Assembly (NCBI GenBank): GCA_963701085.1
Contig: OY969561.1
Coordinates: 896,001-960,000 of the forward strand
From: an uncultured bacterium
GTDB lineage: Bacteria; Babelota; Babeliae; Babelales; Vermiphilaceae
Length of the DNA: 64,000 nucleotides
Direction: 5' to 3'
Made by a program: the position numbers and the translations under genes. The stretch's first letter is position 1. The number at the start of each line of letters is the position of its first letter. A model generated the notes under the pieces. That model ran no database searches and was not told the DNA's origin. It saw only the letters and a program-made list of their open reading frames with translations. Positions 8,537-43,679 of the stretch are shown in pieces.

Positions 8537-9427
8537 TCAACCTAACAACTCATTCACATATTCTTGCCCATCAAATTTTTTAATCTGATCAGATTGTTCA
8601 CCAAAGGTAAGAAAAACAACAGGAATAGCCAGTTCTTGAGCAATCCCAAATACAATACCACCTTTTCCCGTACCATCCATTTTGGTCAAAATAATACCCG
8701 TAACATCAGTGCTCTCTTTAAATAACTTTGCTTGTTCAAATGAATTTTGTCCAAGCATTGCATCAATAGTGAGCAATGTCGCAACATGCTGACCAGAAAG
8801 TTGTTTTTCAACAGATCGTTTTATTTTTGCAAGTTCATGCATTAAGTTTATTTTTGTTTGCAAGCGCCCTGCCGTATCAATGATAAGAATATCGTAGCCT
8901 TCAGTTTTAAACTTTTCACAACCTTGATATACCAGAGATGCTGGATCTTGCCCTTCTTTACCAACCAAAATATCAGCACCTGATTTTAATGCCCATTGAT
9001 TCAGTTGTTCTGGTGCGGCTGCACGGAACGTATCTGCCGCAACCAAGAGTACTTTTTTTCCTTGTTGTGTATATTTATGGGCAAACTTACCAATACTCGT
9101 TGTTTTGCCACTGCCATTAATACCCACGAAAAGAAATATCTGTTGTTTATCAATATCTGGCATGGAATATTGGATCAAAATATCTCTCAAAACGGTATGC
9201 ATTATTTGTTTGAGCTGTGCACCATCGATAATTCCTGCACCAATTTGTTTGCGTAATGCAGCAATAATTGAACGTGTTGTTGAAACACCAACATCACTGG
9301 AGATGAGTAAAATTTCTAATTCTTTGAGCGCAGCTTCATCGATAATAGTTCTACTAAAAAATGAACCTAACTTTGATGTGACGGTACTAAATATTTTTTG
9401 AAGTTTATCTTTGATAAAACTAAACAT
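8537..9427 (-). CDS. ftsY: SRP receptor FtsY
   Basis: GINGSGKTT, DTFRAAA, DTAGR, TKMDGTGKGG; likely start MFSFIKDKL at 9427. Confidence 0.96.
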   Translation of the reverse strand: MFSFIKDKLQKIFSTVTSKLGSFFSRTIIDEAALKELEILLISSDVGVSTTRSIIAALRKQIGAGIIDGAQLKQIMHTVLRDILIQYSMPDIDKQQIFLFVGINGSGKTTSIGKFAHKYTQQGKKVLLVAADTFRAAAPEQLNQWALKSGADILVGKEGQDPASLVYQGCEKFKTEGYDILIIDTAGRLQTKINLMHELAKIKRSVEKQLSGQHVATLLTIDAMLGQNSFEQAKLFKESTDVTGIILTKMDGTGKGGIVFGIAQELAIPVVFLTFGEQSDQIKKFDGQEYVNELLG

Positions 9428-9515
9428 GGGGCCTCTATATAAATGATGAATAATCTGAATTAGTTTTAACATTATAACAAAAAGATGCCTTTTTAGCGAT
9501 ACCAAAAACAGTTCT

Positions 9516-10493
9516 TTATGCAACAACAAGCACATCAAGCTGCGCAACAACACGCTCAACCTGACAACAATTATAATCAACAATCGCTTGTATATACTGT
9601 TTTTTTACTGAACTATACGTATACACCGCATCATGAGCACATTTCATCCACAAATCATATAACGCGTTTGCAGAATATTTATCAATAAGTTTATTTAACC
9701 AATCACGTACATGACTCAACGCCGTAACTTCTTTTGGTGATAATTGTTCACTATTAAGTCTGACTAAAAAGTCATAAGAATCTGTTGCAAGATGAGATAT
9801 AGACTTTAAATCCCATGTAATTGCGCTAGCTGAAGCATTGTTATTAAACCAATAAACAGAACTAAAAACACGATCCATATCAATTGCATAAAAATGAGCT
9901 GTTTGAGCATCAAAAAATAAATTACCCTGATGACGATCATAATTATCAAGATAGATATCAAGCGCTACAATAGAACAAAGTTCATCATTTTCAGTAATAC
10001 TTTGTAAATGAGCGAAACAACGCAACCCCCCATAAATATCAGCCTTTTCACACATGTTTGCAATATTACATACTTCTTTACCCGGCACGCAGGTATGAAT
10101 AGTGGCTACACAACCATCATCTTTACCAGCACAATGGATGTGCGGTGGAATTATTCTTACTTTATTAATACGAATACCAACCGATGCCCCAACATGGGCA
10201 CCCAGCGCCTCATGAATTGCTTGTTCAGGATCAGCATAACATTTAATAATAAAACTATGTTTATGACCATCTTTTAAAAAAGCGACTTTGTTAAAACTCA
10301 CCAGTGGTAATCTATCCGTATCCAAAAACAATGGCTCCTGATACGTAAAATCAGTACCATTAAGCACATTAACAACTGCACGATTTGGCGCAGCCAAGCG
10401 TTTTGCTTCAACAAAACCTGCTGCTGAAACCAATAAAGCAACAAAAAGTGCCTTTACGGCCATATATCGTCTATTTTTCTGTATAATGTTCAT
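9516..10493 (-). CDS. Exported HipA/PI3-PI4-kinase-like protein
   Basis: Signal-like N-terminus; FIIKC Lys, DNYDRHQGN catalytic loop, AIDMD. Confidence 0.65.
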   Translation of the reverse strand: MNIIQKNRRYMAVKALFVALLVSAAGFVEAKRLAAPNRAVVNVLNGTDFTYQEPLFLDTDRLPLVSFNKVAFLKDGHKHSFIIKCYADPEQAIHEALGAHVGASVGIRINKVRIIPPHIHCAGKDDGCVATIHTCVPGKEVCNIANMCEKADIYGGLRCFAHLQSITENDELCSIVALDIYLDNYDRHQGNLFFDAQTAHFYAIDMDRVFSSVYWFNNNASASAITWDLKSISHLATDSYDFLVRLNSEQLSPKEVTALSHVRDWLNKLIDKYSANALYDLWMKCAHDAVYTYSSVKKQYIQAIVDYNCCQVERVVAQLDVLVVA

Positions 10494-20856: not shown

Positions 20857-21931
20857 TCAGCCCATCTTATAACAATTGCGCTCATTACGCATACGATCAT
20901 TGCGATTGCGCAATTTTTCTAGTTCTACTCGATTACACTTTTCCAGAATTCTATTCTGTTCACGCATCGCCCAAACTCGCTCACGCTCTGCACACGCTTG
21001 CGCTTCAAGAGCCTGCAATTGCAAACGTTGCAAGCGAGCCTGTTCCCATTCATACAATTCTCCTGATTACGAGGATCGTTCACGATGATGTTTATTTCAA
21101 CAACTTCGTGTAGTAAGTCATTAACATACTGTCTCTTTGCAGGATAATTATATGCTAGGGAACGAATATATTTAAGGTTAGCTATATCAGATTCAATCTT
21201 AATAACAAATGTACACAATGCATATTGCCCACCATCGTTATTTACAACGCACGTTTCAGTTCTGATGATACTGAATAACGATTAGATTCAAGAATAGTAA
21301 GTTCTTCAAAATATCTGTTGCGCAACTTATCTACCATATAGTACAAATTAGAATAGCTTCTGTGGTGCTCAAGGCAATCAGCAAAACATGTCACATCTGC
21401 CAAAAGATCATTAGCTGCCGATAACAACTGACGCATTCTCGCCAATCTGCACAGATCTTCATACTTACAATTTTTTCTTTCAAGGGCATTAATACGCTTA
21501 CGCAATCCCTGAACAGATGTTTTTAATTGATTCTTTGCCGCAATAACACCTGAACGATACGCATGCTGGGTAACATTGCTATTCCATACACAGGTAGCAA
21601 ATTCATGTAATACTGATTCAGAGATAACACTTGGTTGATACGCATGAGAAGTCATACCTGAAATAAGCCCAAAGTAGTCCATTGTACCTTTATACTGAGT
21701 ATGAATAGCACTATACTCACCATTAATACGCGTAATCATCTGATCATCAGTTTCTGAAAAACACCAGTCTGCTACCGCAACAGCTCCTGCAACACCAAGT
21801 ATTGCTGCTCCTACTGCACATGCTCCTGCTATAAAACCATCATTATTTCCCGCATTACTCATACTACTGCTGCAAGCAAGTGACACCGCCAAAAGACCTT
21901 CCATTGCTCTATTGTTTCGCTTTTTCATCAT
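20857..21931 (-). CDS. Hypothetical exported protein, frameshifted into three ORF pieces
   Basis: Near-contiguous minus-strand ORFs 21242-21931, 20925-21218, 20857-21057; signal plus hydrophobic segment. Confidence 0.5.
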
Positions 21932-22142
21932 AGTTCCCTTCATGTTACACGACGTTACACGATGATTTATACTTAATATCACTGTAACACAGATACTATG
22001 GGGTGTAAAAAGCCCTCTTTTTTGCAATGACAAATAGAAAAAAACATAGTTTTTGCTACGTTTAAAGTTTATCCCTAAATTCAAATAAAACCATCGGCAA
22101 GCAATATCACCCTCACCGCCTATTTTTTTATTTAAACATTAT

Positions 22143-22172
22143 TGACAAATTGAATCAGAATTAGATATTATT
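22143..22172 (+). promoter_or_regulatory. Sigma70-like promoter, repeated before most array genes
   Basis: TTGACA-N18-TATTAT (variants TATTGT/TAGTAT); copies near 22753, 25078, 25662, 26557 and on minus strand near 43250. Confidence 0.7.
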
Positions 22173-22218
22173 GTAAGTGATAATTGTATTAATGTTTTTC
22201 AAAAAAAAGGAGTTTCTC

Positions 22219-22563
22219 GTGAAAAACACAAAAAAATATCTTAGCACAGGCGTAGCCCTGGCGATCACACTGTTTGCAGCAGTTCAAACAATTGCAATGG
22301 AACGACCAGTAAATCCTTATCTGAGTGAACAAGCTAAACAATTGATAAAAAGCAGGATCGAGTTTTTCTCATCTGCAGCTGAAGACCAGTTTGATCCAAA
22401 ATCTCAGTATTTTGAAGACAATCCGTCTAAAAGAGCAGTTACAGCGGCAATAATTAATGCATATAAAGACATGTATTATGGAAATAAACCTTATACTGAC
22501 GATGAAATAGAAGAAACAATGTCAAATACACGCAGGGCTACACTAGCTAAATTCAACCAGTAA
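22219..22563 (+). CDS. Small secreted array protein, copy 1
   Basis: AAGGAG RBS, GTG start, leader KNTKKYLSTGVALAI..FAAVQ..AM, VNPYL, YYGNKPYT. Confidence 0.88.
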   Translation: MKNTKKYLSTGVALAITLFAAVQTIAMERPVNPYLSEQAKQLIKSRIEFFSSAAEDQFDPKSQYFEDNPSKRAVTAAIINAYKDMYYGNKPYTDDEIEETMSNTRRATLAKFNQ

Positions 22564-22830
22564 AAATTCTTAAAATAACACAAAAATAGCGCTTACTTAC
22601 TTTCAGTAGGCGCTCATTTTTATGCGCTCACTTCTGCCGCAGACAGGGCAATAATTATCTATTTTTTAAGAAAAATCAGCATATCCCTAAATTCCAATAA
22701 AACCATCGGCAAGCAATATCAGCCCACTCACCTATTTTTTATTTAAAGATTATTGACAAACTGAATCATAATTAGATATTATTATAAGTGATAGTTATAG
22801 TATTATTCTCAAAAAAAAGGAGTGTGTTTC

Positions 22831-23166
22831 ATGAAAAGCACAAAAAAATATCTTAGCACAGGCGTAGCCCTGGCAATTGCATTATTTGCAGCAGTTCAAG
22901 TATCTGCAATGGAACGTCGAACAGTAAATCCTTATTTGAGCCCAGGAATCAAAAAAATGGTAGAAGACCAGATCACAACTCGTCAACGATATCTTGATCC
23001 AAAGTATAAACGCTATAGTGAACTAAGTGAGCTACAAAAAAGGGATATTCAAGCACTGATTGAAGGATACGAAGAAGTGCTTTATGGAAATAAGGATTAT
23101 AGTTTTAATGAAGTCTATAATATTGCTAATGGACATTTAGAACGTGCAAAAAGAGAAAATCAATAA
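22831..23166 (+). CDS. Small secreted array protein, copy 2
   Basis: Same leader and anchor motifs. Confidence 0.88.
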   Translation: MKSTKKYLSTGVALAIALFAAVQVSAMERRTVNPYLSPGIKKMVEDQITTRQRYLDPKYKRYSELSELQKRDIQALIEGYEEVLYGNKDYSFNEVYNIANGHLERAKRENQ

Positions 23167-23248
23167 CCAAAAATAGCACACATGACGGGCGCCTACTCAC
23201 TTAGAGTGATAATTATATTAATGTTTTTCAAAAAAAAAGGAGTTTCTC

Positions 23249-23599
23249 ATGAAAAACACAAAAAAATATCTTAGTTTTAGCACAGGCGTAGCCCTGGCAA
23301 TCGCATTATTTGCAGCAGTTCAAGTATCTGCAATGGCCCCCCAAGTAAATCCTTATCTGAATTTACACACCAAAATAATGATAGAAGATGAGATCGAAAG
23401 GCTTCAAGAACTCCTTGATCCAAGGGGTCTACGTTCTAAGAGAATGGGTGGGATTAGTGAGCTAGATAAAAAGACATTCCAAGCAGAGATTAAAGGATGG
23501 GAAGAAGTGCTTTATGGAGATAATAATTATACTTGGCAGCAAATACAGGATATTATTCAGAGACATGTAGACCGTGCGACAAGAGAAGTGCGACAATAA
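23249..23599 (+). CDS. Small secreted array protein, copy 3
   Basis: Same leader (2-aa insertion) and anchor motifs. Confidence 0.88.
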   Translation: MKNTKKYLSFSTGVALAIALFAAVQVSAMAPQVNPYLNLHTKIMIEDEIERLQELLDPRGLRSKRMGGISELDKKTFQAEIKGWEEVLYGDNNYTWQQIQDIIQRHVDRATREVRQ

Positions 23600-23710
23600 A
23601 ATAGCACACATGACGGGCGCCTACTCGCTTAGTAGGCGCTCATTTTTATAAGCTCATTTCTGCCGCAAACATGGCAAAAAAGCCCTTTTATGGCAGGGCC
23701 TAGATATTGA

Positions 23711-24895
23711 TTAATTTTTTTCCAATTTTTTAATAAGATATCCCGCAGATTTCCATCCTAAAACAGTCGCCTGGGGCCAATTTTGATTTTCTATACCACC
23801 ATAAATAACATAATGTTCTTTTGTTGGTAATTGTGTCAATTCTTGCCATTGATCAAACGCTTTAAAAAAATCAGTTGCCACCGTTTTGCCAGCCTTAATT
23901 TCAACAGGGACGGGATACGTTTGATCAAGAATACAATCAATTTCATTACCAGTATGATCACGCCAAAAATAGATATTTGGCTGTTGTTCTAAATTAAATC
24001 GCTGCTTACGCAAATCAGAAATGATAAATGATTCTATCAAACCACCTCGCAAATAATGATTATCCAGATCTTGTTCTGATTTAATATTCAGCAATGAGCA
24101 AGCAAGACCAGTATCAACAAAATAAATTTTGGGCGATTTAATAAGACGTTTACCAAAGTTTTGATAGTAGGGATATAAAGAAAAAATAATATAACTTGCT
24201 TCTAGCACAGAAAGCCATGCTTTTACCGTGCTGTGATTAACACCACAATCATTACCAAGTGATTCTAAATTAACAACCTGACCAATGCGTCCTGCACAAA
24301 GACGAATAAAGCGTTGAAATGTTTCTAAATCAGTAATCTGCCGCATCTGACGAACATCACGTTCAACATAAGTAAGGATGTAGTTGCTATAAAGGCGCGA
24401 TGGAATACTATCTTCAGCATACACTTGCGGATAGGCGCCTTTCCAAACCGCTGTTTCAATTTTATCGGGTAATAAATTCGCAAAATCAAGTTCACTTACT
24501 GATAAAGGAAGTAAGGTCAAAATAGCAATCCTTCCCGCCAGTGTTTGACTAATAGCTTCATGCACCAAGATATTTTGGGAACCGGTAACCACAAAGAAAC
24601 CTTTTTTCTTTTCTCTATCAACAATAGTTTGCATGTAGGAAAGTAGCTGTGGAGCATTTTGAATTTCATCCAAAATAATCCCAGAACTGCTCGGATATTC
24701 AGCAAGAAACTTCCGGGGATCAGCAAGAGCAAGCTCTCTCAAATCAAAATCTTCCAAAGATATATATTTGTGATCAGGAAAGGCCATTTGAACGAGAGTT
24801 GTTTTGCCAGATTGCCGAGGACCTAGCACTGCAATTACCGGATATTCAGTCGCCGCATCGAGCATTTGAACTTCAATTTCACGCTTTATAAGCAT
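23711..24895 (-). CDS. AAA_14 ATPase with DUF4143 domain
   Basis: GPRQSGKTT, LDEIQ, TGS, LAGR, KSPKIYFVDTGL, EID...PVEIK. Confidence 0.93.
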   Translation of the reverse strand: MLIKREIEVQMLDAATEYPVIAVLGPRQSGKTTLVQMAFPDHKYISLEDFDLRELALADPRKFLAEYPSSSGIILDEIQNAPQLLSYMQTIVDREKKKGFFVVTGSQNILVHEAISQTLAGRIAILTLLPLSVSELDFANLLPDKIETAVWKGAYPQVYAEDSIPSRLYSNYILTYVERDVRQMRQITDLETFQRFIRLCAGRIGQVVNLESLGNDCGVNHSTVKAWLSVLEASYIIFSLYPYYQNFGKRLIKSPKIYFVDTGLACSLLNIKSEQDLDNHYLRGGLIESFIISDLRKQRFNLEQQPNIYFWRDHTGNEIDCILDQTYPVPVEIKAGKTVATDFFKAFDQWQELTQLPTKEHYVIYGGIENQNWPQATVLGWKSAGYLIKKLEKN

Positions 24896-25155
24896 CTTTC
24901 TTACCCCTTATAGAAAATTGCGAATTCAATTATCAATTTTCTTATTATTATAAGATACCGTGGTAAAAAGAGCAATAATTACCTATTTTTAAGAAAAATC
25001 AGCATATCCCTAAATTCCAATAAAGTGATCTGCAAGCAATATCACTTCCCCTTGCCTATTTTTTTATTTAAACATTATTGACAAATTGAATCACAATTAG
25101 ATATTGTTATAAGTGATAGTTATAGTATTATTCTCAAAAAAGAGGAGCATATTTC

Positions 25156-25488
25156 ATGAAAAACACAAAAAAATATCTTAGCACAGGCGTAGCCCTGGCA
25201 ATCGCATTATTTGCAGCAGTTCAAATATCTGCAATGGCCCCAAAAGTAAATCCTTATCTGAGTCCAGAACAAAAAACAGTGATAGAATCCAATATCAAAC
25301 ATCTACAAGATGAACTTAATCCAAAATCTAATTTTTTTAAGCAATATTTTGAGTCACAGAGAGCACTAGCACGAGCAATGATTAAAGGATTTGAAGAAGT
25401 ATACTACGGAAATCAACCTTATACTTATCAGCAAATTCAAGATACTGTTAGTGAATATCATGACCGTGCATTAGCTGCATTAAAATAG
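25156..25488 (+). CDS. Small secreted array protein, copy 4
   Basis: Same leader and anchor motifs. Confidence 0.88.
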   Translation: MKNTKKYLSTGVALAIALFAAVQISAMAPKVNPYLSPEQKTVIESNIKHLQDELNPKSNFFKQYFESQRALARAMIKGFEEVYYGNQPYTYQQIQDTVSEYHDRALAALK

Positions 25489-25739
25489 CACATATGACAA
25501 GCGCCTACTCGCTTGGTAGGCGCTCATTTTTATAAGCTCATTTCTGCCGCAAACGGGGCAATAATTACCTTTTTTTAAGAAAAATCAGCCTATTCCTAAA
25601 TTCCAATAAAACCATCGGCAAGCAATATCACCCTCACCGCCTATTTTTTATTTAAACATTATTGACAAATTGAATCATAATTAGATAGTATTGTAAGTGA
25701 TAATTATAGTATTATTCTCAAAAAAAAGAGGAGCGTGTT

Positions 25740-26087
25740 ATGAAAAGCACAAAAAAATATCTTAGCACAGGCGTAGCCCTGGCAATCGCGTTATTTGCAG
25801 CAGTTCAAACAATTGCAATGGAATCGGGTCGAAAAGTGAATCCTTATCTGAGCCCAGAAATTAAACAAAGGGCAGAACGTGCGATCAAATCTTATGAAAG
25901 GATGATTGATCCAAAGAATAAAGTTTATGATGAGCCATTCAAAAAAATGCTCAGACAAGAGCTTAAAGTATATGAAGATGTGCTTTATGGAAATAAATAT
26001 TATACTTGGCAGGAATACCATGATACTGTCCGGAGACATCAAGAACGTATAGGGGAAGAGAACCCTGCAATAAGGGAAAATCAATAA
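25740..26087 (+). CDS. Small secreted array protein, copy 5
   Basis: Same leader and anchor motifs. Confidence 0.88.
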   Translation: MKSTKKYLSTGVALAIALFAAVQTIAMESGRKVNPYLSPEIKQRAERAIKSYERMIDPKNKVYDEPFKKMLRQELKVYEDVLYGNKYYTWQEYHDTVRRHQERIGEENPAIRENQ

Positions 26088-26134
26088 ACAACGATAGCAC
26101 ATATGACGGGCACCTAATAAAAGGAATATTTTGT

Positions 26135-26476
26135 ATGAAAAGCACAAAAAAATATCTTAGCACAAGCGTAGTCCTGGCAATCGCGTTATTTGCAGCAATT
26201 CAAATAACTGCAATGGAACCGGGTCGAAAAGTAAATCCTCATCTGAGCAAAACACAGAAAGACATGCTAGAATACGAGATCCAAAAAGCTGAAGGATTTC
26301 TTGATCCAAAGTCCGAATCTGTTATGAGAGGATCTGGACTATTCATAAGCCAACAACAAGCAAAGGTTGAAGGACTTAAAGAAATATACTACGGAAATAA
26401 ACCTTATACTGACCAGCAAATTGAAGATACTCTTTGGAATCATAAGCGCCGTGCAATGCTACAGGGAAACTCTTAA
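26135..26476 (+). CDS. Small secreted array protein, copy 6
   Basis: Same leader and anchor motifs. Confidence 0.88.
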   Translation: MKSTKKYLSTSVVLAIALFAAIQITAMEPGRKVNPHLSKTQKDMLEYEIQKAEGFLDPKSESVMRGSGLFISQQQAKVEGLKEIYYGNKPYTDQQIEDTLWNHKRRAMLQGNS

Positions 26477-26635
26477 AAATCAGCATATCCCTAAATTCCA
26501 ATAAGACAATCTGCAAGAAATATCACGCTACCCCATGTTTTTTCATTTAAATATCATTGACAAATTGAATCATAATTAGATAGTATTGTAAGTGATAATT
26601 ATAGTATTATTCTCAAAAAAAGAGGAGCGTGTTTC

Positions 26636-26953
26636 ATGAAAAACACAAAAAAATATCTTAGCACAGGCGTAGCCCTGGCAATCGCATTATTTGCAGCAGT
26701 TCAATTAACTGCAATGGCCCCAAGAGTAAATCCTTATCTGAGCGAAAGAGCGAAGCAATCGATAAAAGACCGTATCGAATATATACAAGAACTGCTTAAT
26801 CCAAAGTCTAAAGCAGATGAGCGACTCAGAAACAGTTACAAAGCACATCTTAAAGGATATGAAGAAGTATACTACGGGAATCAACCTTATAGTCTAGATG
26901 AACTTGAGGATATTATTCAGAGATACAAAGCTAAAGAAGGCTATCAACAATAA
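26636..26953 (+). CDS. Small secreted array protein, copy 7
   Basis: Same leader and anchor motifs. Confidence 0.88.
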   Translation: MKNTKKYLSTGVALAIALFAAVQLTAMAPRVNPYLSERAKQSIKDRIEYIQELLNPKSKADERLRNSYKAHLKGYEEVYYGNQPYSLDELEDIIQRYKAKEGYQQ

Positions 26954-26969
26954 AATAGCACATATGACG

Positions 26970-27002
26970 GGCGCCTACTGACTATAGTAGGCGCTCATTT
27001 TT
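26970..27002 (+). terminator. Intrinsic terminator of array unit (copies at ~22588, 23617, 25501, 42775)
   Basis: GCGCCTACT-loop-AGTAGGCGC followed by T tract. Confidence 0.8.
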
Positions 27003-27015
27003 ATAGGATCACTTC

Positions 27016-27171
27016 TGCCGCATAAACGTTGGTATATCAAGATCTTTAGAATCTACTGCGCACTCCTCCTTCGCATAAAGCTTCGGAGGACACGGCCAAA
27101 CGTTAGAGGTATCTATTCTATTTTTGCCGCATAAACGTTGGTATATCAAGATCTTTAGAATCTACTGCGCA
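27016..27171. repeat. Exact 47-bp direct repeat of the ftsZ 3' end flanking a palindrome
   Basis: 27016-27062 is identical to 27125-27171. Confidence 0.95.
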
Positions 27172-28368
27172 ACCAAATGTATTATCAGCCTGTTCAAAAA
27201 AATCCGCATGACTCTTTTTCATAAAATCATGCGTTTCTTCTGCCACCGCCTCAACTTCTGTTTGCAATGGTAATGGCTGCACAACCGGTTCCTGCTCTTG
27301 TATCACTGTCGCTACCATACAAACATGCGCAACGTCTTCTTGGTGCTGGATAACAGGCGCTTCTTCTTTTGCTTCTTGTACCTGTTGCGCCACTGGACGT
27401 TCAAAATCAGTTGCAATAATTGTAACAATAACCTCATCTTTAAGATTATCATCAATGACTGAACCGATAATAATATTGGCATCTTCATGCGCTTGTTCAT
27501 ACACCACTGATGCAGCTTCACTAATTTCATGCAGCCCAAGATCTTTGCCACCGGTAATGTTACACAACACACCATGAGCACCAACGACCGACATGTTTTC
27601 TAGCAACGGTGATGATATTGCTTGCAATGCTGCTGCACGTGCACGGCCAACACCTGATGCTTTTCCGGTACCCATTACCGCAAGACCACGATCTTTCATA
27701 ATGGCGCGAATATCAGCATAATCAACATTAATATGCCCTGGTCGCGTGATAATATCAGAAAGTCCACGAACTGACTGACTCAAAACTCCTTCATTGATCA
27801 TTGCAAATGCATCAATCATAGAAACATGTTCATCAACAACCTCGAGTAATTTTTGATTTGGTACAATAATCAATGTATCAACATCTGTTTTAAGTTTTTC
27901 AATGGCTGCATCTGCTACTTGCGAGCGACGTTTACCTTCAAATAAAAATGGTCGTGTAACAATTGCTATGGATAAAATACCTTTTTCACGCAATGCACGT
28001 GCAATTACTGGTAATCCTCCAGAACCTGTTCCACCACCCATACCACCAACAATAAAAACTATGTCTGCTCCACTGATAGCATCCATAACTTTGTCTAAAT
28101 CTTCTTCAGCAGCACGTTTTCCAATTTCTGGATTCGCCCCCGCCCCTAACCCTTTTGTTGACTTAACACCAATCTGGATCTTATGCTGCGCCTTTGAGAA
28201 TTCCAATGCTTGTGCATCTGTGTTTGCAACAACAAACCCAATTCCCTGACATCCTGATTCTATGATGCTGTTAACAGCGTTTCCCCCTGCACCACCAACA
28301 CCAATTACCTTGATTGATACCATCGACTTTTGACGCTGTAATGCTTCTTGTTCAAAATCTATCATCAT
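27118..28368 (-). CDS. ftsZ: Cell division protein FtsZ
   Basis: GVGGAGGNAVN, GGGTGSG, C-terminal DLDIPTFMR. Confidence 0.98.
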   Translation of the reverse strand: MMIDFEQEALQRQKSMVSIKVIGVGGAGGNAVNSIIESGCQGIGFVVANTDAQALEFSKAQHKIQIGVKSTKGLGAGANPEIGKRAAEEDLDKVMDAISGADIVFIVGGMGGGTGSGGLPVIARALREKGILSIAIVTRPFLFEGKRRSQVADAAIEKLKTDVDTLIIVPNQKLLEVVDEHVSMIDAFAMINEGVLSQSVRGLSDIITRPGHINVDYADIRAIMKDRGLAVMGTGKASGVGRARAAALQAISSPLLENMSVVGAHGVLCNITGGKDLGLHEISEAASVVYEQAHEDANIIIGSVIDDNLKDEVIVTIIATDFERPVAQQVQEAKEEAPVIQHQEDVAHVCMVATVIQEQEPVVQPLPLQTEVEAVAEETHDFMKKSHADFFEQADNTFGCAVDSKDLDIPTFMRQK

Positions 28369-42676: not shown

Positions 42677-42816
42677 ATAATTATAAACTCATAAAAGTAG
42701 ATAGGAGTAACATAAAAAGTTTACCCCTATTTGACGTATGGGTCAAATTAGCACCTATTATCCAAAAAAATGAGCGCCTACTATAGTCAGTAGGCGCCCG
42801 TCATATGTACTATTGT

Positions 42817-43173
42817 TTATTGATTTTCTCTTGCCTTTATACGTCTATTCTCTTCTTTTGCAAGATCCCAATATTTATCAATAGTCTCGTCTATTTCCTG
42901 ATAAGTATAAGGTTTATTCCCGTAATATACTTCTTCAAATCCTTTAAGTCTTGCACGTACTTTGTTTAAGTATTTCGTATCTGGAAAAAAATTTTGAGAC
43001 TTTGGATCAAGAACGTCAGAAGTCATTTTGATTTCACGTTGTATCCATCTTTTAGTTTCTTCATTCAAATAAGGATTTACTGTTCGACGTTCCATTGCAG
43101 TTATTTGAACTGCTGCAAATAATGTGATTACCAGGGCTACGCCTGTGCTAAGATATTTTTTTGTGTTTTTCAT
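42817..43173 (-). CDS. Small secreted array-family protein, dispersed copy 8
   Basis: Same leader, motifs, promoter and terminator as the 22-27 kb array. Confidence 0.88.
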   Translation of the reverse strand: MKNTKKYLSTGVALVITLFAAVQITAMERRTVNPYLNEETKRWIQREIKMTSDVLDPKSQNFFPDTKYLNKVRARLKGFEEVYYGNKPYTYQEIDETIDKYWDLAKEENRRIKARENQ

Positions 43174-43470
43174 AAAAAAGCTCCTCTTTTTTGAAAATGA
43201 TACTATATCTATCACTTATAACACTATCTAATTCTGATTCAATTTGTCAATAAAAATTAAATAAATGTTGGAACTCTATGAAAATGTCACCTCTGAACTA
43301 TAGAAAAATATCACATTTGGATGGTGTAAATATAGGCAGTCGCCTTTTTATGGTAGGATATGGTAGGATGGGTTAAAACCTTCAAAATTTAACCTATAAA
43401 CCAAAAAAACTGGTAGAAAGAAATCACCTTCTTTACCCATTTTTCATATTTTTTAGGCAACAATAAGCTC

Positions 43471-43596
43471 TTAAATACCGAGTTTTTTAAAAAGTTCTTT
43501 AATATCTTTATATTCTGTAATACCCTTACCCTTTTCAGCATTTTTAATGGCCTTAAGAGTTTTTTTGTTAGGATACTTTCTTTTTTTTCTTTTCAT
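43471..43596 (-). CDS. 41-aa peptide resembling RelB/DinJ antitoxin C-terminus
   Basis: MKRKKRKYPNKKTLKAIKNAEKGKGITEYKDIKELFKKLGI, read directly (not in ORF track). Confidence 0.5.
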   Translation of the reverse strand: MKRKKRKYPNKKTLKAIKNAEKGKGITEYKDIKELFKKLGI

Positions 43597-43679
43597 ACCT
43601 AAAATCCATCATCTTGTCGAAGAACACAAACACTATATACTTATACATAAATTACTATGTTTTTTAAATCAGAGTCACC

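Follow-up and report, generated by a model that had tools for sequence, protein, structure and literature searches.

Remnants of a former ftsZ end in the spacers of a paralogous gene array from a Dependentiae bacterium: probable traces of one amplified tandem duplication

Tandem gene amplification, in which an illegitimate duplication is followed by unequal homologous recombination, is a general mechanism in bacteria. As for DNA inserted at a gene end, the available text of PMC13626634 describes e14 of Escherichia coli as bordered on one side by icd, a gene that extends into the prophage, and on the other by icdC. The locus considered here bears comparison with both; it lies downstream of ftsZ in an uncultured member of the Dependentiae (Babeliales), within the stretch of 64,000 bases (hereafter the window) that spans bases 896001-960000 of a single-contig genome (G000; 1,198,634 bases, 37% G+C). 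In this window, to which plain coordinates refer, the list of open reading frames (ORFs) includes seven paralogous genes of about 105-116 codons, sp1 to sp7, placed on the plus strand and convergent with ftsZ (27118-28368, minus strand; Pfam Tubulin, 4e-46, and FtsZ_C, 6e-32), the final gene of a ftsQ-ftsA-ftsZ run. Some of the spacers between the sp genes contain 14 nt of an older ftsZ end, and these internal relics are probably best read as copies of one tandem-duplication junction, located 14 nt into ftsZ and amplified by unequal crossover.

The array has much in common with tandem amplifications: its units are head to tail and homologous over their full length, one novel junction is repeated, the closest relatives of the copies are found within the same genome, where they are monophyletic, and the copy number varies among related bacteria. 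Unlike the usual case, the junction reaches an essential gene and keeps a dated relic of its former stop codon; moreover, the copies are old, with a mature protein that is strongly diverged while promoter and signal peptide are conserved. The relics are a rare dated record in that the array would have grown while ftsZ had its older stop codon, and the terminus would have been rebuilt later.

Regarding the relics, TCAYTTCTGCCGCA is present as an exact match on the plus strand at 22628, 23654, 25538 and 27009, as reported by the first-pass annotation of this DNA, a reading of the letters alone; the mean number expected is 0.00, none of 100 shuffles reached four, and the whole genome has only these four copies, other matches needing one or two mismatches. 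Three of them are internal to the array and correspond to copies 1, 2 and 3 of a junction named J-A (22628-22641, 23654-23667 and 25538-25551, each of 14 nt), while the fourth is part of a longer duplicate beside ftsZ. On the minus strand, the motif is TG CGG CAG AAR TGA and translates into R-Q-K-stop. The annotation had identified it with the last codons of FtsZ, which is correct for the peptide and not for the codons in use today: the present gene ends with ATG CGG CAA AAA TAG, therefore the motif is a synonymous, older version. This is a true former end, because the working ftsZ of L031, a metagenome contig from a related member of the Babeliales, still terminates so (ATGCGGCAGAAGTGA), a few bases from an sp terminator; in L031, three sp genes converge on ftsZ, and the latter is 76% identical over residues 213-416.

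A strong terminator hairpin precedes each motif copy, and its T-run ends 2-4 nt before the motif, in line with the position past the unit terminator given by the annotation; the z values are -4.6 and -5.0 for the two hairpins that were folded. The claim that the three internal copies share the base at which similarity to ftsZ breaks was also borne out, since the local alignment of the next 40 nt with the ftsZ tail is no better than that of shuffles (p 0.92-1.0). A longer version of these relics, with 4-8 additional nt across a 2-nt gap, was visible by eye only and was not established, given the same alignment p values.

Proceeding toward ftsZ, sp1 (22219-22563), the first of the paralogues and endowed with a signal peptide, is followed by relic 1, sp2 (22831-23166), sp3 (23249-23599), relic 2, sp4 (25156-25488), relic 3, sp5 (25740-26087), sp6 (26135-26476) and sp7 (26636-26953). 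The three internal relics share more than 14 nt: a 96-nt block, with 68-100% identity, runs from the sp stop through the terminator and the relic into the spacer, and it is followed by a 253-nt promoter block (61-100% identity; repeat families D7, D10, D12 and D1), while a 38-nt block is common to all four motif copies (89-100% identity). More in general, the homology between units, described by the repeat families D1-D12 and by alignment A2, is head to tail. The DNA past relic 2 (23676-23696) resembles the edge of the array on the side of orf280 (22006-22026; p 0.008 versus random genomic windows), orf280 being the conserved gene (21242-22084, minus strand) that bounds the variable region on the far side from ftsZ, and from TATCCCTAAATTC onward (TATCCC) all units align strongly with this edge. 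A relic followed by edge DNA is the arrangement expected for a head-to-tail junction, with an end 14 nt inside ftsZ joined to an end in the intergenic region between orf280 and sp.

Of the six gene-to-gene junctions, three have no relic, and these are different from each other: in the sp2-sp3 spacer, a half terminator runs directly into the -10 region; the sp5-sp6 fusion falls at the ribosome-binding site and has no terminator, relic or promoter; the sp6-sp7 joint, at the stop codon, has a promoter and neither terminator nor relic. With three other junction types in the same array, breakpoints were therefore not confined to one core. As for the descent of the copies, a tree of 18 family members places all eight G000 copies in one clade (98/96), apart from those of G007, G002, G005 and L031; in the same tree, G007_b and G002_b pair across genomes (98/95). 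The G000 copies being monophyletic, the family grew within the lineage, and gene conversion could contribute to this pattern.

The eighth copy, sp8 (42817-43173, minus strand), is dispersed and has a promoter and a terminator as in the array, namely the family promoter and a terminator identical to that of sp7, with no ftsZ relic: its similarity to sp7 stops exactly where the ftsZ stop codon would begin, therefore the core does not belong to the unit itself. The genes flanking this locus (42677-43679) have orthologues about 120 nt apart in G007, a statement of synteny that comes from tblastn, the direct alignment with the G007 site being uninformative. Further, the sister genome G007 has next to its own ftsZ a 716-nt tandem unit with 94% identity, which begins 45 nt after the ftsZ stop and has no ftsZ relic; this unit is independent, and it reflects the same process with a breakpoint just outside ftsZ.

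Taken together with the relatives, these data are consistent with the following sequence of events. At the start, a single sp gene with its own promoter and terminator would have been convergent with an ftsZ ending in CGG CAG AAG TGA, a few bases from the sp terminator. A tandem duplication, with one end between orf280 and sp and the other 14 nt into ftsZ, would then have produced a junction in which the terminator is followed by the last 14 nt of ftsZ and by promoter-upstream DNA. Unequal homologous recombination among the units would have copied this junction and expanded the family to seven genes, while further deletions or duplications would have given the three other junction types and the gene for an ATPase would have landed in one spacer. 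Later, and as a separate event, the ftsZ terminus would have been rebuilt with the synonymous CAA AAA TAG, leaving a 55-nt insert and, after it, the displaced 54-nt end.

Several points weigh against this reconstruction. Taken alone, junctions 1 and 3 show on their right side no significant similarity to the edge (p 0.51), so that the link with the edge depends on copy 2 and on the downstream homology; by eye, junctions 1 and 3 appear to lack about 21 nt that copy 2 has kept. The relationships among the copies could be blurred by fast protein evolution or gene conversion, because mature coding DNA is 65% identical versus 83-92% for the promoters and 91% for the DNA of the signal peptide, and the monophyly may be in part concerted evolution. 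In addition, the structure by itself does not tell unequal crossover from repeated re-insertions of a circle that this array had released by excision. At least two duplications of the ftsZ tail occurred in G000, others are found in G005 and L066, and the G000 and G005 duplicates have left edges no more than about 2 nt apart, which is unexpected for random breakpoints. Finally, the assembly is from an uncultured organism, and no independent read or contig spans any junction: among public reads, one soil run with a fraction of 0.20 of the words and two sister runs gave 10, 5 and 0 short contigs with a depth of 2-5, in which the sole joint, 24983 to 25059 in X2, is from a relative about 90% alike.

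As for the fourth motif copy, it belongs to a displaced older ftsZ end of 54 nt (27009-27062, minus strand), which reads CAVDSKDLDIPTFMRQK-stop (TGA). The first-pass annotation had this copy running into a 47-nt duplicate of ftsZ, and indeed 27013-27062 and 27122-27171 match at 49 of 50 positions, of which 47 consecutive; the two tail copies have no mismatches over these 47 positions and then four in the last 9 nt (Fisher p 0.0003), all of them silent (CAG to CAA, AAG to AAA, and TGA to TAG). The end that ftsZ has today replaced the older one, which was displaced and lies downstream of it; the 54-nt copy is an event separate from the internal relics and records a later rebuilding of the terminus, for which either capture or a hairpin element is the candidate mechanism. 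The new end, CAAAAATAG, is of the type found in G007, and the 24 nt that follow the new stop have no source among the ten genus relatives compared with G000. A third, degenerate copy of the ftsZ tail was sought in these 24 nt, between hairpin and stop, and it was not established (p 0.043 with shuffles, 0.069 with genomic windows).

The 55-nt insert that separates the displaced end from the present ftsZ stop (27063-27117, no strand) includes at 27064-27093 one copy of a dispersed, GC-rich hairpin repeat of about 30 nt (type TCCTCC..GGAGGA), which has 22 dispersed matches of at least 19 nt with 90-100% identity in G000 and copies also in the relatives. The same repeat family is found in frame, and in both orientations, in the ftsZ linker of L024 (G007), L027 (G005), L028 (G003) and L031, where it adds peptides such as HVCLSAVASAKED. 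Other examples in G000 are at C1 526474, 659926 and 1131961; some copies are located just after tRNA genes, and the repeat is often clustered with related GC-rich repeats. This element recalls the Rickettsia palindromic elements (RPEs) and the repeats of repetitive extragenic palindromic (REP) or miniature inverted-repeat transposable element (MITE) type; with RPEs, it has in common a short GC-rich hairpin that is dispersed in the small, AT-rich genome of a host-dependent bacterium and enters genes in frame. It differs from RPE and REP in its length of about 30 nt, in having no associated transposase that could be found, and in its tie with the duplication of gene 3' ends in three cases, and we know of no description of such duplications for RPE or REP. 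Compared with MITE/REP elements, the many dispersed copies are there, while most of them have no flanking duplication.

The closest known parallel for the 54-nt part is the icd/e14 arrangement, where the housekeeping gene icd has a C-terminal pseudogene, icdC, beside the cryptic prophage e14, given that in both the intact 3' end differs silently from the displaced C-terminal fragment beyond the insert. However, e14 is a prophage of 15 kb that brings its own system for site-specific recombination, whereas only 55 nt with a hairpin repeat, and no integrase, are inserted in G000; the inserts of two other genomes with a duplicated ftsZ tail, G005 and L066, are 2 kb and 0.9 kb of ordinary genes. 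Of the traits of integrative elements placed at gene 3' ends, direct repeats of the tail together with an intact gene occur for the 54-nt copy of G000, for G005 and for L066, and not for the array units; no encoded integrase or excisionase accompanies them.

A scar of this kind is not limited to ftsZ. In thrS of G000 (C1 582765-582957, outside the window), the last 56 nt including the stop are duplicated with 91% identity around an 81-nt insert that holds a related GC-rich element; of the two copies, the upstream one is intact, and the relic directly adjoins the start of the following gene. Among the ten genus relatives, none has the thrS tail duplication. The ftsA tail, taken as a control, has a second copy in one of 45 loci, that of G005 (L035 7815-7912), where two copies of the last 25 nt, stop included, enclose 47 inserted nt with a GC-rich hairpin, GGGGCCCCCAAC..GTTGGGG. 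In these three small cases (ftsZ and thrS of G000, ftsA of G005), the stop codons of the two copies differ in three out of three, and at five out of five silent third positions the working copy has A and the relic has G.

Regarding the relatives, the first-pass annotation had proposed to compare the regions downstream of ftsZ, on the premise that a lack of variable cassettes there, along with a copy phylogeny that fits local duplication, would refute the accretion of cassettes at ftsZ; variable content was seen, so that this comparison did not refute the annotation and the idea of a hotspot holds in part. Homologues of orf280 are downstream of ftsZ in eight of the ten genus relatives. G004, G003, G010 and G008 have only 94-266 nt between ftsZ and orf280, and G009 has one gene without known function; in G006 the gap is 7.3 kb long and holds six genes, among them those for an aldehyde dehydrogenase and a WD40 protein, and no recombinase, while G001 has an ankyrin gene after ftsZ, then the contig ends. 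As for the sp family, four sp genes occupy this gap in G007, and G002 has at least two sp genes and a longer gene with the same signal peptide, then again a contig end; the sp copy number between species is 1, at least 3, 4 and 7. In G005, ftsZ is followed by an ankyrin/RING gene, a Nif11 gene, a 57-nt relic of the ftsZ tail (55 of 57 positions match), an sp-type terminator, one sp gene and orf280, and the terminator proximal to ftsZ resembles that of G004. In the ftsZ tree, G005 groups with G007 and G002 (100/100), both without the duplicate, and G000 is not resolved; an independent origin of the G000 and G005 duplicates is therefore simpler, a weak argument in that it comes from one gene only.

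The ftsZ end was located in 42 of 48 further Dependentiae loci, and a second tail copy downstream of it was found in two of them, L035, which is G005, and L066; a 19-nt match upstream of ftsZ in L077 looks like chance. L066, from another genus, has at 9233-10190 the last 34 nt of ftsZ plus the terminator repeated on either side of a gene pair for a nucleotidyltransferase and an NTase_sub_bind protein (HEPN-type), therefore with an extent different from the 57 nt of G005. Overall, the interval between ftsZ and orf280 is hypervariable within the genus. The variable downstream content, the tail duplicates in G005 and L066 and the replaced end of G000 mark the ftsZ terminus as a point of recurrent rearrangement, with no evidence for site-specific recombination, and in this respect the interpretation given by the annotation is partly supported.

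The explanation that the annotation favored, and that now seems most improbable, is accretion by site-specific recombination, with the last codons of ftsZ acting as an att-like core at which circular cassettes, each with core and terminator, enter and push the older ends outward. Such displaced ends would adjoin a terminator, as each relic does, and the absence of a relic beyond the unit nearest orf280 is expected if that DNA is the original downstream sequence; the present ftsZ end, unlike all the relics, and the wide variation of the gap across the genus also agree with it. Contrary to this mechanism, however, the units are all members of one paralogous family, with their own promoters and monophyletic within G000, the core is missing from three of the six junctions, sp8 moved without it, and the four relics are all of one older end type rather than a series of ends; likewise, the tail duplicates of G005 (57 nt) and L066 (34 nt plus terminator) differ in extent. 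The absence of an integrase from the window was confirmed for Phage_integrase (PF00589), whose three matches in G000 are at 356.9, 437.8 and 575.6 kb versus 896-960 kb for the window. They correspond to two Xer-like tyrosine recombinases (308 and 312 codons) and to a 245-codon orphan (C1 356766-357503) whose N-terminal domain is apparently absent, all of them more than 320 kb away; hence, the genome search for an orphan recombinase that had been suggested did yield a candidate, and no link between it and the ftsZ locus was found. The genome has no match to resolvase, Y1 transposase or rve, and the inserts of G000 (55 nt), G005, G006 (six genes) and L066 contain no recombinase gene. The array resembles an integron in that short units, all in one direction, are lined up at a fixed place on the chromosome and separated by a short repeat; this resemblance is offset by the lack of intI near the array and of attI, by units that are paralogous with promoters and terminators of their own, whereas integron cassettes are mostly promoterless and unrelated, by hairpins that are terminators with T-runs, and by a repeated sequence that, unlike the inverted repeats of attC, is a gene relic absent from half of the junctions. 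That the array units are cassettes docked one by one at ftsZ with their own replacement ends is thus not supported, given one junction by descent, monophyletic copies and an sp8 without relic; the alternative that the annotation itself had listed, one duplication junction amplified by unequal crossover, fits best.

Two further mechanisms concern mainly the 54-nt copy. One is a homology-anchored gain without integrase, through a crossover in conserved ftsZ coupled to an illegitimate join or a Campbell-type crossover of a circle with an ftsZ tail, which would leave ftsZ with a new end followed by an insert and by the old end, now displaced, and could possibly account also for the first 14-nt junction; it is unlikely on balance, even if several data suit it. 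In G000, the new end CAAAAATAG is of the G007 type and the displaced one of the L031 type; in G005, the proximal terminator is similar to that of G004 and the displaced end is on an sp-type terminator; the differences between proximal and distal copies are silent or stop-to-stop, and the inserts differ, with ankyrin/RING and Nif11 genes in G005 versus the nucleotidyltransferase/HEPN-type pair in L066. On the other hand, the 47 nt beside the new end are identical to the relic, which requires a near-identical donor or a crossover very near the end, the ten genus relatives provide no donor for the 24 nt after the new stop, and the monophyly of the array genes is left unexplained. The other mechanism, very unlikely, has the hairpin repeat as a small mobile element that duplicates 25-56 nt of its target, so that the relics of ftsZ, thrS and G005 ftsA would be target-site duplications. 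The three cases do have one layout, intact gene end, short insert with a GC-rich hairpin and displaced end, with repeats spaced, start to start, by 109 nt (ftsZ of G000), 137 nt (thrS of G000) and 73 nt (ftsA of G005), and the repeat family is dispersed and found in frame in the ftsZ linkers of G007, G005, G003 and L031. Yet, only 4 of the 22 hairpin copies have, within 200 nt, flanking direct repeats of 11 nt or more, and that of ftsZ is the only one of at least 40 nt; if the differences seen today are original, the two copies were not identical at birth (stops differ in all three cases, and ftsZ at four positions). Moreover, no transposase of the families searched was found, and the ftsZ insert of G005 ends in no dispersed repeat.

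A broader proposal, possible though doubtful, is that in Dependentiae the 3' ends of conserved and essential genes might be recurrent entry points for DNA, through a process without integrase that would duplicate 25-70 nt of the tail and leave the gene intact; its instances would be ftsZ in three genomes of two genera, thrS in G000 and ftsA in G005. The ftsZ terminus might then act as an anchor that gathers effector-like genes (the sp family, ankyrin/RING and Nif11, the nucleotidyltransferase/HEPN pair), with the hairpin repeat as part of the mechanism, either as a new element with long target duplications or via homology-facilitated capture between lineages. Almost nothing is known on how such genes arrive in this phylum, and if the duplications at ftsZ, thrS and ftsA were due to one mechanism, reduced genomes devoid of the usual mobile-element enzymes would have a new way to acquire genes; otherwise, the locus is a common tandem amplification whose scar happens to be unusually easy to read.

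Turning to the proteins encoded by the array, they have a signal peptide, MKNTKKYLSTGVALAIALFAAVQ..AM, and after it a helical portion in which the motifs VNPYL, DPK and YYGN.PYT occur. Six of the seven array proteins have no match in Pfam, and sp1 has only Dpy-30, below the cutoff (16 versus 22 bits). In the AlphaFold model (pLDDT 85.3), the predicted structure consists of the signal helix and three or four additional helices arranged in a small bundle, with no fold match in the PDB at E 0.001 or better. The family counts 44 proteins in a collection of 5.8 billion, and the names given to them are all "hypothetical protein" except for a TRAP-transporter label given to a weak match, P0042; among the closer relatives are P0013, on a 105-kb contig, and others with 50-60% identity. 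Regarding its distribution, the family is in 5 of 11 genomes of the genus and in 5 of 61 sampled genomes of the taxonomic family, three of them marginal.

Among the copies (22050-27000), identity is 83-92% for promoter DNA, with a conserved TTGACA promoter region in five of the seven units, 91% for the signal-peptide DNA and 65% for the mature coding DNA, a difference suggestive of diversifying selection or fast evolution of the secreted part, or else of gene conversion in the 5' parts. The sp locus offers lineage-specific, fast-evolving, small helical proteins, presumably secreted, beside the cell-division operon of a host-dependent bacterium; as such, its products are plausible host-interaction factors, and a secreted role of this type is a guess from the context. 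The literature, searched non-exhaustively, gave no description of this locus or of the hairpin repeat, and the available part of PMC4776705 has no mention of palindromic, repetitive, tandem or mobile elements, nor of integrase.

Among the other features, orf280 matches no Pfam family, and its TTG start as listed is probably too far upstream. An Rfam scan of 21900-27400 returned a single match at chance level (E 0.99). Spacer 2 houses, in the region 23668-24975, the AAA_14/DUF4143 ATPase gene (23711-24895, minus strand; Pfam 5e-27 and 7.4e-50), which has its own terminator and is bordered by similar short flanks, CATGGCAAAAAAG and CGTGGTAAAAAGAG; it has three paralogues elsewhere in G000 with 24-49% identity, the nearest at 49%. 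Finally, a second family of dispersed repeats, of about 80-150 nt and of the type CCCGCGCTCGTCCTGA..GTTGAAGG, has many copies in G000, including those at C1 208015-211060, at 871276 and at 951858 (window 55858).

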